This document shows, piece by piece, positions 49,039 through 54,255 of a stretch of DNA of 60,274 nucleotides (position 1 is its first letter; each line of letters opens with the position of its first letter). The translations under genes and the position numbers were made by a program. Below the pieces are notes generated by a model that worked only from the letters and a program-made list of their open reading frames with translations, did not search any database and was not told the origin of the DNA. The stretch is from Escherichia phage phiG7, in sequence record OQ791410.1; one strand, 5' to 3'.

Positions 49039-49653
49039 ATGTCTAAAGTAACTCACCGCGAACAGGACAAAATGCGTTACACCATGAAAACGAATGCACG
49101 CCGCGCTCTTAAGACCCGCTGGGGCCAGGTTGCACGCGACGCACACGAACAGTTAATCCATCAGGACGACATTGGTTTTTACATTATCGAGAAGGAAGTC
49201 CTTCAGGTGCTGCGCGAGCACGAAAAAGCTCAAAAGCCCGAGCAGAAAGTCCCCGCACCGACCGCCGCGCCAGCTGCTAGCGTCTCGGTACTGCGCCCGA
49301 TGGTAAATCCGGAAATTGTCAAAAGCTGCCTCGAAGCTTTGGAGCAGGAGGAAGAGAAAGATATGAAACACGCAAAAGCTGCCACGCAGGTTTCTGAAAT
49401 CAAAATTGAAGAGCCAAAAGCTGCCGCGCCAAAACAAAATGCAAAAGCTGCTCGCTGCGATTTCAAAAATGGCGCTCGCAAGCCGCTTAAAGGGAAAACT
49501 GCCGAAGTGTGGGCAATGGGTGACAAGCTTCTGAAGGAACTGGGCCTCACGCCGGAGCTGAAAGAGATGAAAGCTGCAATGCCTTCTTACAACGGGACAA
49601 CGGTCGCCATTCAGTTCTACGCCTGGCGCAAATACAACGGACTGGAGGGTTAA
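49039..49653 (+). CDS. hypothetical protein
   Basis: RBS AAAGGAG before ATG at 49039. Confidence 0.4.
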   Translation: MSKVTHREQDKMRYTMKTNARRALKTRWGQVARDAHEQLIHQDDIGFYIIEKEVLQVLREHEKAQKPEQKVPAPTAAPAASVSVLRPMVNPEIVKSCLEALEQEEEKDMKHAKAATQVSEIKIEEPKAAAPKQNAKAARCDFKNGARKPLKGKTAEVWAMGDKLLKELGLTPELKEMKAAMPSYNGTTVAIQFYAWRKYNGLEG

Positions 49654-50004
49654 TTAAATGCAAGCGCTCATTCAATTCTGGCTGGACTATAATGATTTTC
49701 TGGTTGTTATACCTGTATGTAAAATTATCGCAGCAAATCAAAAATTAAAAGCAAGGTATTCACTGGCATAATCTATAACCACACTGTTCACTGACGGGCT
49801 TCTGCGGGAGCCCTAAGGATAAGAAAATGCAATTAGATAGCTTCGCAACTCAATACTTAAAAGACCTTCAACGTCGTGTAAATGAAGCTCGCGCCAAAGA
49901 AGGCCTTAAACCTCTAAACCAGTCCCAGCTTGTTGGCGAATTAATCGAGCAAGCTGCTACTCAGTCAACATTATTTGTTGGCTCTGTATTCGTCCGCAAA
50001 TAAA

Positions 50005-50677
50005 TTCTAACTTCTCCGGGCCAGCCCTCCTACTGGTCCGGTTAACCGCGCAATAAAGTCCTCCTCCAATATCCCGCGATTAAGCGCATTATAGCTTGAT
50101 ATACCTTCCGATCACAATAGTTCAATAAATTTCCCTCAAAAGCACTTGACTTCTCATTTTTGATCTGCATCCGTTCAGGTTTATGAAGTTTTATATGGTT
50201 TATATAATGACCATAAACTCGTCAAATAATACCAATAGGTAATATATGCATTAATAATAAATCCTTATTTTATATATATTTATAGTTATTATTTACTATT
50301 AGTTTAATTATATTTGTTTTAGTTAGTTGACTGAAAGTTTATAAGTTTATAGGGAGCGAGCCAACCGAGATTTCATAAAATGCATAGTATAGTGGTATAG
50401 TGACATTCACTATGTTTCACTACTACTACTAATTCTTTGTTTGAAAACGGGGTAATAAGGGGAAAACCGTAAACTTATAAACTTTGCTCTGTGTCAAAAA
50501 TAAAAATTAGTGAATAGTGAAATAGTGGTTTATAGTGGCAAACTTTTACAAAGCCAGTAACGGCGCACTATACACATTTTGCCCACTATGTACGCCACTA
50601 AGCACTATATTAAAACAATCCTTGCAAATAGCTAATGTCTGTTTTATAGTGGCTTCACCAGTTGACTAGGAGGATTT
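50005..50677. repeat. AT-rich intergenic region with at least 8 TATAGTG(G) copies in both orientations and a 16-bp inverted repeat pair (50334-50349 / 50470-50485)
   Basis: Direct reading; no ORF of 60 aa or more. Confidence 0.7.
50622..50650 (+). promoter_or_regulatory. sigma70-like promoter candidate
   Basis: -35 TTGCAA, 17-bp spacer, -10 TATAGT, about 27 bp upstream of RBS AGGAGG of the 50678 gene. Confidence 0.45.
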
Positions 50678-51421
50678 ATGAGCGAAGAAACTATCACATC
50701 CGCACCATTAACATCTAAAACTGTGGTTAAAGATTTGTGTTTTGCTGCGTGGGTTGTGCAAGCTTGCTCGCAGTTGCGCGGTGCGCCAACCAAATCACAG
50801 GCGCTTGCTATGGTGGAGGATTACTTCAACGAAGATGTGGAACAGCCTGTTAAAAAAGCTGTAAGACAAAAAGCGGGAAAGCTGGATGCAGAACGGGCGG
50901 CTTTCCTTGCATGGGTTAGCGATAAGCTAGGACATGATCTGGATGCCAAAGAGCTTCGCAGCTATACGGGCAAATTCAATTACCACATGGGCAAGGGTAA
51001 CGACCCATATGAAGAAGCATTTAAGGTAAAAGAAGATAAGGGTAAGGCGGGGCGCAAGGAAAACGTCGATCTTAAAGCATGGATAGAGCGCCAAGCCTTG
51101 CTCAAAGGAGATCCTTTGACAGATAAGGAAGCGGATAAATTGACACATCGTTGGTACAGGATGCGCCGGAGCGGCGATGTTCGGGACTGGGATAATCGCG
51201 GTCGCTGGCCTACCTGTTCCCTGCACCATTATGAAACCGCTACTGCTATCCGTGTCAAGCTCGGCGCTCATTGGGTAGACCTTGCACTATACAGGGATGC
51301 TGAGCAGGCTAAAAATATTCTTCCGAACATTGATAATTGGCTTATTAGCTTAAGACAGGGAAGGGAGCCGCAGGACGTTATGTTAGAAGTTAGTAACCAT
51401 ATTATCACAACTCCGCAATAA
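50678..51421 (+). CDS. hypothetical protein (first gene downstream of iteron region)
   Basis: Strong RBS AGGAGG; 247 aa. Confidence 0.45.
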   Translation: MSEETITSAPLTSKTVVKDLCFAAWVVQACSQLRGAPTKSQALAMVEDYFNEDVEQPVKKAVRQKAGKLDAERAAFLAWVSDKLGHDLDAKELRSYTGKFNYHMGKGNDPYEEAFKVKEDKGKAGRKENVDLKAWIERQALLKGDPLTDKEADKLTHRWYRMRRSGDVRDWDNRGRWPTCSLHHYETATAIRVKLGAHWVDLALYRDAEQAKNILPNIDNWLISLRQGREPQDVMLEVSNHIITTPQ

Positions 51422-51485: not shown

Positions 51486-51689
51486 ATGGATCACGAATCG
51501 GAATTTGATTTGAACTACATAACGGCGGCGGAAATCGAAGACCGTTATGGCATATCTAAGTTTAAGATGTCGCGCATACGTGACAGCATCCCGGGCGCTA
51601 TCAGAATTGCTAACCAGTACATCTACAAACGCTCCTTAGCAGTGCCCGCTCTGGAAAAGATGCAAGGCGATAAGCGTCGGAGGTCATGA
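51486..51689 (+). CDS. small DNA-binding (HTH-like) protein
   Basis: Start at MDHESEF with RBS GGAGGG; ITAAEIEDRYGISKFKMSRIR resembles a helix-turn-helix. Confidence 0.35.
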   Translation: MDHESEFDLNYITAAEIEDRYGISKFKMSRIRDSIPGAIRIANQYIYKRSLAVPALEKMQGDKRRRS

Positions 51690-51912: not shown

Positions 51913-54255
51913 ATGGAACTATTTCCCGCTGAAATTAAAGCTTTCCCACAATGGGCGGTCGCCGATGCAGATAAAAAGCCGCTTGTATGGGATAACGATA
52001 TCGGACGTTTGATGGCGGCGGACGTTACCGATCCGGATATGCTAATGACGTTTGAAGCTGCCAAAGGTTGCGCCGCTCATTTCAATAAACCTTACATCGG
52101 CTTCGTGCTTACTGCACAAGACCCGTTCACCTGCATCGACCTGGATGTGAAGAACGCAACCAACGAACCGGATCCCAAGAAGCACACAACGCCAGAACAG
52201 TTGCGCCGCTTCGAACAGATCATGACCGCGTTCGATACTTACACCGAAGTAAGTCGCTCAGGCTTGGGCGTCCACCTGTGGTTAAGAGGGAACATCGGTA
52301 AAGGTCGTCGACGTGATGGTGTCGAGGTTTATAGTCAGGAGCGTTTTATTATTTGCACGGGCAATCCTGTTTATAACAAACCAGTTGCCGAACGTAATCA
52401 TTACCTTACTATGCTTGTGAATGAAATTGATCTTCAGCGCAAGACATATGAAATTGAACTGGTAGAAAAAGATCCGGTAGAAGACGATGCGACTATTCAC
52501 CAGCGCGCACTTGAAGCGGACAACGGGGATAAGTATGCACGCCTATTCAATGGCGAATGGGTTGAAATGGGATTCCCTTCCCAGTCTGAAGCAGATCTTG
52601 CTCTTATTTCTATGTATGCATTTTACACAGAAAGTAATGAGCAATGCCGCCGTCTGTTCCGTTATAGTGCACTGGGCAAACGTGAGAAGGCTAATAAGAA
52701 CAATGTTCATATTGACCGTTGTTTGCGTATGTGTCGCGGTCGTATGGAGCGTGAGCGCATTGCTCAGGAAAACGTAGCGGCGCTGGCGCGGGATTACGCT
52801 GCTCGTATGCAAGCCGCACACAGTGCAATTCAGCAGGTAACGGAAATGCCTGTAATTGTCGAAACAACACAGGGGCAGACAGTAGTTGCGGAAAGTACAT
52901 CCATTGATGCAACAGCTATTGACTGGCCACCGGGACTCGCTGGGGAGCTTGCGAAGTACATCTACAAAGCATCCGTCCGACCAGTAAAAGAAATCTCTAT
53001 TGTGACCGCGCTCGGCTTTATGGCTGGGGTATGCGGGAAAGTATGGCAGATCCCGCAATCCGGTCTTAATGGCTATTTTGTCTTAATTGCTCGTTCTGGT
53101 GTTGGTAAAGAGACGTTGAACAGCGGGCTGTCTAATATAGTTAGCCAGATTCAGGACAAGTTTCCGCAGATTCATAGCTTTGTATCTTTTGATAGATGCG
53201 CTTCTGGATCTGCACTGCGTAAATCTTTTGCAGACAAACAATCTTTTATCAACCTGAATGGTGAGTTCGGTAAGATTATCAAAGCAATGGCAACGGCTCC
53301 AGCAGGCTCGCCGATGCAAAGTTTCAAGAATGATCTTACCGATGTTTATCAAAAGTCCGGTCAGATGTCTATTGTTGGTGGTATGTCTTATTCTGATAAG
53401 GCTAATAATACTGAAGCTCAACAAGGTGTGGCATATAGCATCATGGGTGAAACGACACCGGATACGTTCTTTGAAGCATTAACCCGAGAAATGATGGAGG
53501 ATGGATTCTTATCCCGTTTCCATGTTGTACGCTATGAAGGTGATCGACCACCTTTAAACAAAAATCAGCAGACTACAATGGATCAGCATTTGAAGGACAT
53601 GGTGTGCCATCTTGTTAACCACACTTTAGTAACCATGGCAAAGCATCAGAGTATTGAAGTACAGTTTAGCCCGGATGCGGAAGCATTATGCGATCAGTTT
53701 AACGATGAATGTGATCGCAATATTAACGCAACCAAAGACGAAGCGATCCGTCAGCCGTGGAACCGTGCTCACCTAAAGGTCTTGCGACTTTCTGCCTTGT
53801 TAGCTGTTGGTGAGAACTGGATCAATCCGGTGGTACAAACCTATCATGTGCAATGGGCTTTGGACTTCGTGCGTCATGGGCAGGATATTATTATGAAGGA
53901 ATGGCATAGCGGAGGCATTGGGACTAATGATGAAGCTCGTATCCGTACTATGTGTCAGGTCTGTGTGAATTATCTAACTAAAGACTGGGTGAAAGTTAAA
54001 CGTGTAGATTTGCGCAAAGAAGGTATTATCACGCGGGGTGATATTACTACGCGTCTTGCAAGTAAGTCCGCGTTTAAAAACTATCATCACGGATTATCCG
54101 CTGCAATCGAGTCTACAATCAAGGAGATGGTTGCTATGGGTGCACTTGTTCCGGTAACACGGGAGGAGACTATTAAACTGGGATTTACTGGGGCAGCTTG
54201 GCGCATTACGCAAGATGTTGAAGGAATTATGGCAAACTTAGGTGAAGAGGAATAA
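51913..54255 (+). CDS. primase-helicase (AEP-type prim-pol domain fused to P-loop helicase)
   Basis: Prim-pol motifs CIDLDV and SRSGLGVHLW; Walker A ARSGVGKET. Confidence 0.65.
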   Translation: MELFPAEIKAFPQWAVADADKKPLVWDNDIGRLMAADVTDPDMLMTFEAAKGCAAHFNKPYIGFVLTAQDPFTCIDLDVKNATNEPDPKKHTTPEQLRRFEQIMTAFDTYTEVSRSGLGVHLWLRGNIGKGRRRDGVEVYSQERFIICTGNPVYNKPVAERNHYLTMLVNEIDLQRKTYEIELVEKDPVEDDATIHQRALEADNGDKYARLFNGEWVEMGFPSQSEADLALISMYAFYTESNEQCRRLFRYSALGKREKANKNNVHIDRCLRMCRGRMERERIAQENVAALARDYAARMQAAHSAIQQVTEMPVIVETTQGQTVVAESTSIDATAIDWPPGLAGELAKYIYKASVRPVKEISIVTALGFMAGVCGKVWQIPQSGLNGYFVLIARSGVGKETLNSGLSNIVSQIQDKFPQIHSFVSFDRCASGSALRKSFADKQSFINLNGEFGKIIKAMATAPAGSPMQSFKNDLTDVYQKSGQMSIVGGMSYSDKANNTEAQQGVAYSIMGETTPDTFFEALTREMMEDGFLSRFHVVRYEGDRPPLNKNQQTTMDQHLKDMVCHLVNHTLVTMAKHQSIEVQFSPDAEALCDQFNDECDRNINATKDEAIRQPWNRAHLKVLRLSALLAVGENWINPVVQTYHVQWALDFVRHGQDIIMKEWHSGGIGTNDEARIRTMCQVCVNYLTKDWVKVKRVDLRKEGIITRGDITTRLASKSAFKNYHHGLSAAIESTIKEMVAMGALVPVTREETIKLGFTGAAWRITQDVEGIMANLGEEE

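Follow-up and report, generated by a model that had tools for sequence, protein, structure and literature searches.

Iteron-regulated replicons such as the lambdoid phages (O iterons) and the iteron plasmids (RepA, RepE or pi) carry their iterons beside an AT-rich unwinding element and autoregulate through iteron-like sites in the promoter; origin and operator roles are commonly combined in iteron replicons. In these replicons, the specificity of the initiator co-varies with the iteron word between related members, and the initiators, which lack enzymatic domains, recruit the host helicase DnaB; in lambda, the iterons lie inside the O gene. In the papillomaviruses (E1/E2) and in the SV40 core origin, words of 5-6 bp placed head-to-head beside an AT-rich element direct the assembly of a superfamily 3 (SF3) helicase, and papillomavirus E2 is a second sequence-specific protein which has its own sites beside the origin, aids loading and regulates transcription. 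The Rep proteins of pathogenicity islands found in Staphylococcus aureus (SaPIs) are self-loading helicases whose C-terminal winged helix binds SaPI-specific iterons of 5-6 nt, which flank an AT-rich region on either side and are oppositely oriented (PMC9371898). In P4 alpha and pRN1 ORF904, a primase, an SF3 helicase and a C-terminal winged helix follow each other in one polypeptide (PMC2777425), while NrS-1 has been proposed to begin DNA synthesis sequence-specifically at a fixed place in the genome, with 8-nt recognition sites (PMC7102993, PMC8718748). The present analysis concerns a repeat-bearing non-coding region of Escherichia phage phiG7 (record OQ791410.1, the window, 60,274 bp). We read positions 50179-50653, with a probability of roughly 0.6, as an iteron-type replication origin that is fused to the promoter and operator of the replication operon and served by a self-loading primase-helicase.

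The phiG7 record is a complete Seuratvirus (Queuovirinae) genome, and the phage is a lytic siphophage of Escherichia coli. Phages of this group have 7-deazaguanine-modified DNA, are included in the BASEL collection and have been studied for anti-restriction. No origin or iterons were described for Seuratvirus, Nonagvirus or the wider Queuovirinae in the literature searched, and the GenBank records of relatives annotate here only a terminator, a promoter and, in some, an open reading frame (ORF) of 44 amino acids (aa). Around the region, phiG7 is 97.7% identical to SeppeHuegi from the BASEL collection. The initial annotation of this DNA described the region as the longest non-coding stretch of the genome, and rightly so: positions 50004-50677 (674 bp) form the longest stretch without an ORF of at least 50 aa in six frames, the runner-up measuring 212 bp. 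Its place directly upstream of a 247-aa protein (p247) and the primase-helicase was also correctly given, as the p247 gene, with which the DNA-metabolism block opens, starts at 50678 in the primase-helicase operon. Two families of short repeats were distinguished in the region, called class 1 (TAGTG family) and class 2 (GTTTAT family).

The primase-helicase of phiG7 resembles SaPI Rep and PriRep in combining a primase, an SF3-type helicase and a C-terminal winged helix, the last being predicted in phiG7. Likewise, short iterons around an AT-rich region, initiator-specific words and a location beside the initiator gene are shared with the SaPI origins (PMC9371898). However, the SaPI origin lies downstream of rep and uses one iteron family without an accessory protein, whereas the phiG7 region lies upstream, is fused to the operon promoter and carries a second, independent family tied to the 247-aa ORFan. 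The domain order is also that of P4 alpha and pRN1 ORF904, and like the latter the protein is of the archaeo-eukaryotic primase (AEP) prim-pol and helix-bundle type; the small DNA-binding protein encoded upstream in pRN1 may be compared with the 67-aa protein p67 of phiG7 (PMC4234260). Unlike phiG7, P4 has a DnaG-type primase. The cis sites of P4 and pRN1 differ in sequence and position, the pRN1 origin being downstream of orf904, and no cognate site could be demonstrated for the winged helix of pRN1. NrS-1 has homologous AEP and helix-bundle domains, but its priming domain reads a single-stranded template at two single sites, whereas the phiG7 words follow the C-terminal domain and form arrays.

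The likeness to papillomavirus E1/E2 is only an analogy, that of two proteins with two families of sites. Neither E2 nor the origin-binding domain of T-antigen shows a relationship in sequence or fold here, and in the proposed reading the phiG7 helicase would contact DNA through its C-terminal winged helix. No homology was detected between p247 and the lambdoid O or plasmid Rep initiators. The upstream, promoter-fused position, the two independently assorting word families and the second protein of no known family thus set phiG7 apart from SaPI, P4, pRN1 and the papillomaviruses, and the feature is best filed as an undescribed case of the iteron-origin and self-loading primase-helicase kind. 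The prim-pol/SF3/winged-helix initiator design of P4, SaPI and pRN1 probably serves origin recognition in a common group of lytic siphophages as well.

Repeat families and the AT-rich core

The features on which the analysis is based are the following:

50179..50219, both strands: class-2 cluster a, direct GGTTTATG, AGTTTTATA (imperfect) and GGTTTATA, then inverted CATAAACT; left flank of the core
50222..50333, no strand: AT-rich core, GC 8-18% (composition profile), the most AT-rich 110 bp
50334..50351, plus strand: class-2 cluster b, two tandem AGTTTATA; left arm of the 16-bp repeat and right flank of the core
50388..50429, both strands: class-1 cluster I, forward TATAGTGG and TATAGTGA followed by inverted TTCACTAT and TTCACTAC, head-to-head, running into the TAC triple
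50470..50485, minus strand: class-2 cluster c, two inverted copies (TAAACTTATAAACTTT); right arm of the 16-bp repeat
50507..50539, plus strand: left arm of class-1 cluster II, four forward copies, TTAGTGAA, ATAGTGAA, ATAGTGGT and TATAGTGGC
50563..50610, minus strand: right arm of class-1 cluster II, four inverted copies, GCGCACTATA, GCCCACTATG, GCCACTAAG and GCACTATAT
50622..50653, plus strand: sigma-70-like candidate promoter of the operon, TTGCAA-17-TATAGT (hexamers 50622-50650), its -10 covered by a class-1 copy
50645-50653, plus strand: this single class-1 copy, TATAGTGGC
50678..51421, plus strand: p247 gene, 247-aa protein, Seuratvirus-only ORFan, candidate class-1 reader
51913..54255, plus strand: primase-helicase gene, 780 aa, with AEP prim-pol and helix-bundle, DUF3987/D5-like SF3 helicase and C-terminal domain
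53890..54252, plus strand: residues 660-780 of the primase-helicase, its C-terminal domain, predicted to be a winged helix and the part co-varying with the class-2 word

The 5-nt core TAGTG/CACTA of class 1 is present in 13 copies in the region, ATAGTG in 10 (33 genome-wide) and the exact heptamer TATAGTG in 6 (11 genome-wide). The initial annotation had counted at least eight copies of TATAGTG(G); their clustering in both orientations stands, whereas a count of eight or more requires that one mismatch be allowed. The ten ATAGTG copies fall within 300 bp, against at most three elsewhere in the genome and at most three in 60 Markov-1 genomes, and as many copies were not reached in any of 1000 simulations based on the local AT-rich composition. 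The TAGTG word is not over-represented genome-wide, and it is the clustering alone that is extreme. The two arms of cluster II converge head-to-head across a spacer of about 24 bp. The triple TAC repeat is real (50420-50429) and represents a degenerate tail of the TAGTG family, reading CACTA-C-TACTA in phiG7 and ACCCTA-G-TACCCCTA in CAjan. The class-1 copies in 50388-50539 read TAGTGG or TAGTGA and hence contain GTGG or GTGA.

The exact 16-bp inverted repeat (50334-50349 and 50470-50485) was confirmed, as were the positions of the other features listed earlier. Its arms proved to be tandem copies of the second family, (A/G)GTTTAT(A), which had been missed as a family. This family forms three clusters (50179-50219, 50334-50351 and 50470-50485), and clusters a and b bracket the AT-rich core, which is the layout of iteron origins. 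Six copies of GTTTAT lie within 320 bp, against at most three elsewhere in the genome and a maximum of 3-4 in the Markov simulations; one of 1000 local simulations equalled the observed count. The core is a candidate DNA unwinding element. The exact DnaA-box consensus TTATCCACA is absent from the region (mismatched forms were not searched), and there are only two GATC sites.

Repeat words and protein alleles among relatives

The primase part of the 780-aa protein matches PF22763 (NrS-1-type helix-bundle), PHROG 3022 (DNA primase) and the PHROG primase/helicase families. The sequence matches in PDB were SaPI5 PriRep5 (7OLA), which was the best (E 8e-11) and was confined to the primase domain, residues 61-264, and the NrS-1 primase-polymerase. 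The helicase part matches PF13148 (DUF3987) at residues 492-653 (E 5e-13). For the C-terminal domain, structure prediction from an alignment built from full-length primase homologues gave a winged helix, the fold expected of this initiator family, while a homology search with the C-terminal 141 aa alone returned no match.

The class-2 comparison was based on 24 Seuratvirus-like loci. The C-terminal 120 aa of the primase-helicase fall into three discrete alleles, with an identity of 99-100% within alleles (100% in 23 of the 24 loci) and 37-46% between them, and the class-2 word agrees with the allele in all 24 loci, none being discordant. The nine loci with allele I contain GTTTAT 6-9 times and GTTTTG 0-1 times, the 13 loci with allele II contain GTTTTG 4-7 times and GTTTAT 0-1 times, and the two loci with allele III contain ATTTTAY 5-7 times and the other words 0-1 times. 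From allele to allele, one word takes the place of another at homologous positions, and the intervening sequence is kept. Cluster a reads GTTTTG/CAAAAC with the type II C-terminus and ATTTTAT/ATAAAAT with type III; cluster b reads AGTTTTAGGTTTTTGG in type II phages; the counterpart of cluster c is CCCAAAACCCCAAAACTTT in type II and GTAAAATTCGTAAAATTC in type III. The sequence of the AT-rich core is kept across primase types I and II, alignment columns 86-195 being nearly invariant in groups A, B, C and D.

The primase gene is a recombinant mosaic. Residues 1-300 (AEP and helix-bundle) are 99-100% identical between alleles I and II and the helicase part 57-70%, while the last 120 residues reach only 30-45%; the divergence sets in at about codon 300 and lasts precisely as far as the stop codon, beyond which the DNA is again 96.6% identical. 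Allele III combines a type-II-like helicase part (80%) with its own C-terminal domain and its own word, which indicates the C-terminal domain as the determinant of the word. Moreover, the pairing is not one of simple adjacency, because the class-2 words are separated from the primase C-terminus by the class-1 arrays, p247 and p67, all of which assort independently. Six of the nine combinations of class-1 and class-2 types were seen: allele I with TAGTG or TAGGG, allele II with TAGTG or GGAATA, and allele III with TAGGG or TAGTG.

HNH homing-endonuclease genes are present in relatives at varied points of the module, located either in the p67-primase gap or upstream of the non-coding region (L002 5932-6456; L011 4516-5040; L015 1981-2463; L066 2724-3188 and 5064-5597; L013 350-679), and phiG7 has none here. 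It is plausible that these genes drive the extreme mosaicism of the block formed by the candidate origin, p247, p67 and the primase. Two records with other host names, MH230177 (Aeromonas phage SD04) and KY982929 (Cronobacter phage CSP1), show about 85% DNA identity to the module and carry primase allele II, which reflects either real host breadth or questionable host labels. A scan of IMG/VR yielded only 3 loci with the primase as the query and 42 loci with the 17-mer AATAATACCAATAGGTA, 41 of which were chance matches.

The p247 protein is rare, with 3 profile hits among 1.8 billion representative proteins, and it is restricted to Seuratvirus-like phages, where its identity within the genus ranges from 99% down to about 40%. 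Counting k-mers in the homologous non-coding stretch of 14 phages revealed three states of the class-1 word. ATAGTG occurs 6-10 times in every phage whose p247 shares at least 53% identity with that of phiG7. ATAGGG occurs 11-12 times, without any ATAGTG, in CAjan, Seurat, slur01 and SLUR76, whose p247 is 42-44% identical, and GGAATA-type words occur where p247 is absent. The maps and the alignment showed that the architecture is kept and that the class-1 word is replaced copy by copy at about 13 positions: all copies of cluster I read TAGGG/CCCTA in the four phages named, and the right arm of cluster II is kept in groups A, B and C and reads CCCTA in group D. As the hosts are all E. coli, this concerted change implies a phage-encoded reader with differing specificity.

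With further variants taken from public assemblies (L063, L065 and L066), seven variants of p247 were compared. The protein is a mosaic in which only residues 61-125 split by the word, with an identity of 49-81% within and 30-39% between words; the other segments shuffle independently of it. TAGNG arrays are missing where p247 is missing. We infer from these comparisons of sequence that p247 is a candidate reader of the class-1 arrays, which may act as an accessory factor and autoregulator. The Foldseek search of BFVD with p247 found its own homologue and, beyond that, weak short hits only, and hhalign of p247 against the AP2-like protein of group E gave a probability of 0.2. The C-terminal beta-beta-beta-alpha domain was considered as an AP2-like binder and set aside: its weak short Foldseek hits are to HNH-endonuclease-associated domains, Pfam and hhalign gave it no support, and the segment does not follow the class-1 word, so that it is kept as a lead only.

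Seven Seuratviruses lack p247, namely L016 (VogelGryff), L017 (GottfriedDienst), L067, L068 and L070-L072, and have no TAGNG arrays. They carry 8-10 GGAATA/TGGAATAA words, including an insertion to the left of class-2 cluster a. Upstream of the primase, three small ORFs encode a homologue of p67, a protein of 93 aa that matches the AP2 domain weakly (E 2e-4) and a protein of 89 aa. The GGAATA words together with the AP2-like ORF set look like a functional replacement of the accessory module.

The proposed origin and rival readings

Under the proposed mechanism, the winged-helix C-terminal domain of the primase-helicase would recognise (A/G)GTTTAT(A) on either side of the core and again, inverted, at 50470-50485. 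The protein would assemble as a self-loading SF3 helicase, presumably in hexamers, melt 50222-50333 and prime with its own AEP domain. A helper might nevertheless be required, given that the operon also encodes p247 and p67. The p247 protein would bind (T)ATAGTG(G) in the arrays at 50388-50429 and 50507-50610 and at the copy over the -10 (50645-50653), and could thereby autoregulate the operon, assist, license or gate loading or origin firing, or do both. The proposal in the initial annotation of an origin or regulatory hub, laid out as an origin plus initiator, is best supported after the comparison of relatives, although the roles appear to be distributed differently, in that the words that track the primase are GTTTAT and not TATAGTG. 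The AT-rich core and the priming domain hardly vary between alleles I and II, as would be expected of a conserved priming site, but this is speculation.

A more specific version of the proposed origin is tentative. In it, two keys would be needed: the primase-helicase would read one word and p247, which is structurally unprecedented, would read a second, exchangeable word, licensing or repressing firing. If this is true, co-circulating Seuratviruses fall into replication 'compatibility groups' set by the three helicase tails with their words and by no fewer than three class-1 states. The groups could be kept by selection in co-infection and shuffled by the homing endonucleases of the module, and group E would have swapped the second key for an AP2-like protein and GGAATA repeats. 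The p247 protein is a candidate for a new origin-accessory protein. The map is testable with respect to which words of 6-7 bp bind which domain, and the natural allele swaps predict the outcomes of domain and site swaps.

Several observations weigh against the proposed origin. The 24 loci represent three primase alleles and a handful of recombination events, so the statistical weight of the concordance is far below that of 24/24. The comparison of the allele pattern covered the genes of this module only. In Hafnia phage yong3, a fourth version of the C-terminal domain (44% identity to allele I) nevertheless goes with GTTTATA-like words, hence the mapping of domain to word is not one-to-one. 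The class-1 arrays directly adjoin the 5' half of the p247 gene; linkage therefore contributes to the co-variation of p247 with the word, which could be plain linkage. Moreover, p247 has no recognisable DNA-binding domain, and searches of Pfam, NCBIfam and PDB sequences gave no match. The cumulative GC skew, a check suggested in the initial annotation, does turn near 47-50 kb, but the turn coincides with the switch in gene orientation (plus strand from 47.2 kb across the record end to about 17.9 kb, minus strand at 18-47 kb); being confounded by it, the skew does not discriminate and is uninformative on the origin.

The region divides small early-type ORFs (47.2-50.0 kb) from the replication genes and contains promoter-like sites, which is why transcriptional control has to be weighed as its sole role. 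The sigma-70-like TTGCAA-17-TATAGT noted earlier is present at 50622-50650 and matches 9/12 consensus positions; in the 1.5 kb scanned, 6 promoter-like sites were found against 3.6 +/- 1.5 expected by chance. In every group a class-1 copy lies on the -10 or -35 of the putative operon promoter. The CAjan equivalent reads TTGCAA-17-TACCAT followed by AGGGT, which is the class-1 word of CAjan, and the promoter annotated in SA126VB, TTGCCA-17-TATAAT, overlaps GCCACTAGCACTAT. Since class 1 overlaps the operon promoter, the term 'regulatory hub' probably fits the TATAGTG part. If control were the only role, the arrays would be operators for p247, p67 or a self-repressing primase, and the core would be promoter or UP-element DNA; p67 is weakly HTH_17/MerR-like, and in pRN1 a small repressor, ORF56, is encoded upstream of the prim-pol helicase gene (PMC4234260). 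We regard this explanation as unlikely. At least 13 sites, two head-to-head arrays, a second word tied to the winged-helix tail and a core of 8-18% GC exceed the needs of an operator, and such a layout fits known origins (PMC9371898). For class 1, a purely transcriptional role is conceivable. Operator and origin roles are compatible, whereas the association of class 2 with the winged helix and the core are explained less well by control alone.

A second alternative takes the TAGTG arrays as priming sites, at which the AEP and helix-bundle domains recognise GTGG or GTGA in a single-stranded template, the forward array giving leftward and the inverted array rightward synthesis. The sequences TAGTGG and TAGTGA of the phiG7 copies agree with 5'-GTGG-3' and 5'-GTGA-3', the most efficient recognition sites of NrS-1, the closest characterised prim-pol (PMC8718748), whose type of helix-bundle domain is also present in the phiG7 primase, and the converging arms would, as we reason, yield divergent leading strands. 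However, CAjan, Seurat, slur01, SLUR76 and L066 have TAGGG at these positions, and thus no GTG, with a priming domain (residues 1-300) that is 99-100% identical. The class-1 word therefore does not follow the priming domain, and the AEP and helix-bundle domains were rejected as the main reader of TAGTGG/TAGTGA. We consider this alternative quite improbable, and the match of the class-1 copies to the NrS-1 motifs is probably coincidental.

It is highly improbable that the repeats are unrelated to replication and mark a pac/cos array, a partition-like site or a homing-endonuclease recombination hotspot: terminase small subunits also bind arrays of short repeats, HNH genes lie at several points of this highly mosaic module in relatives and some GenBank records begin close to the region, but the repeats co-vary with the primase C-terminus and p247 (the terminase cluster, about 10 kb away on the other strand, was outside the comparison), homing accounts for the mosaicism and not for a concerted change of the word at every copy, and no supporting evidence for a packaging or other cis-site role was found. 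A structured RNA or tRNA as the nature of the region was rejected, as Rfam gave no match in 49500-51000 with E up to 1, nor one genome-wide at the gathering score, and ARAGORN detected no tRNA or tmRNA in the region.

In the Nonagvirus JenP1 (L020 1187-1560), analogous AT-rich repeats are present in a 940-bp non-coding region upstream of the replication operon. They comprise three copies of CTTTATAAAT together with inverted ones, three of AAAACTTTGCA and an inverted repeat of 24 nt, and the words differ from those of Seuratvirus. The design of the proposed origin may therefore be general in Queuovirinae. PaMx25 has a small set of repeats and Vid5 none in the fetched stretch; JenP1, PaMx25 and Vid5 are too distant for controlled co-variation.

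Flanking elements and small ORFs

Further features of the locus are the following:

50016..50042, plus strand: GC-rich hairpin just past the stop of the upstream 58-aa ORF, without a T-run on either strand
50043..50178, no strand: left block of normal GC, about 99% identical even where the right half is replaced
50449..50466, plus strand: G-tract element CGGGGTAATAAGGGGAAA, GGGG-N6-GGGG, directly 5' of class-2 cluster c
51486..51689, plus strand: p67 gene, 67-aa protein, weakly HTH_17/MerR-like

The DNA-metabolism block begins with the 247-aa protein, the 67-aa protein, a 71-aa ORF, the 780-aa primase-helicase, dUTPase and ligase, and goes on across the record end with Sak4, SSB, a Cas4-type exonuclease, a helicase, DpdA, the clamp and DNA polymerase. 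A homologue of p67 lies directly upstream of the primase in Vid5 and PaMx25 too. This protein tracks neither repeat class: it differs between groups A and D although both share class-2 words, and it was rejected as the class-1 reader because L063 has the A/B-type putative recognition helix (SKFKMSRLRDS) yet TAGGG words.

An equivalent of the G-run at 50449-50466 is present in all loci regardless of the word type. The 44-aa ORF at 50535-50669 (plus strand) is situated within the class-1 arrays. It starts with GTG and lacks a Shine-Dalgarno sequence, and it is absent in groups C and D, L063 and L066. It is annotated as a hypothetical protein in SeppeHuegi, KS_A8 and KurtStettler, WildeMaa has a coding sequence of 135 bp at the equivalent position, and the ORF of equal length in group B is not homologous. 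The 44-aa ORF is probably no gene but an annotation artefact.

The hairpin at 50016-50042 has an RNA folding energy of -16.8 kcal/mol (z = -2.75) and is near-identical in all relatives; its counterpart is annotated as a terminator in SA80RD and SA126VB, and it probably terminates the upstream early operon. The best promoter-like match of the region is on the minus strand, TTGTGA-18-TATAAT (50117 -> 50088, 10/12 positions), and would read back through the hairpin. A 42-aa minus-strand ORF (50042-50170) is annotated in KS_A8. In the left block there may be a small antisense transcript, or a binding site for p67 or another conserved factor.

In most relatives, the 58-aa ORF is separated from the non-coding region by a 108-aa gene of 327 bp (L006 2506-2832; L007 2505-2831; L014 2507-2833). 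It is missing in phiG7, at the 50003/50004 junction, and for this reason the match between phiG7 and SeppeHuegi falls into two pieces.

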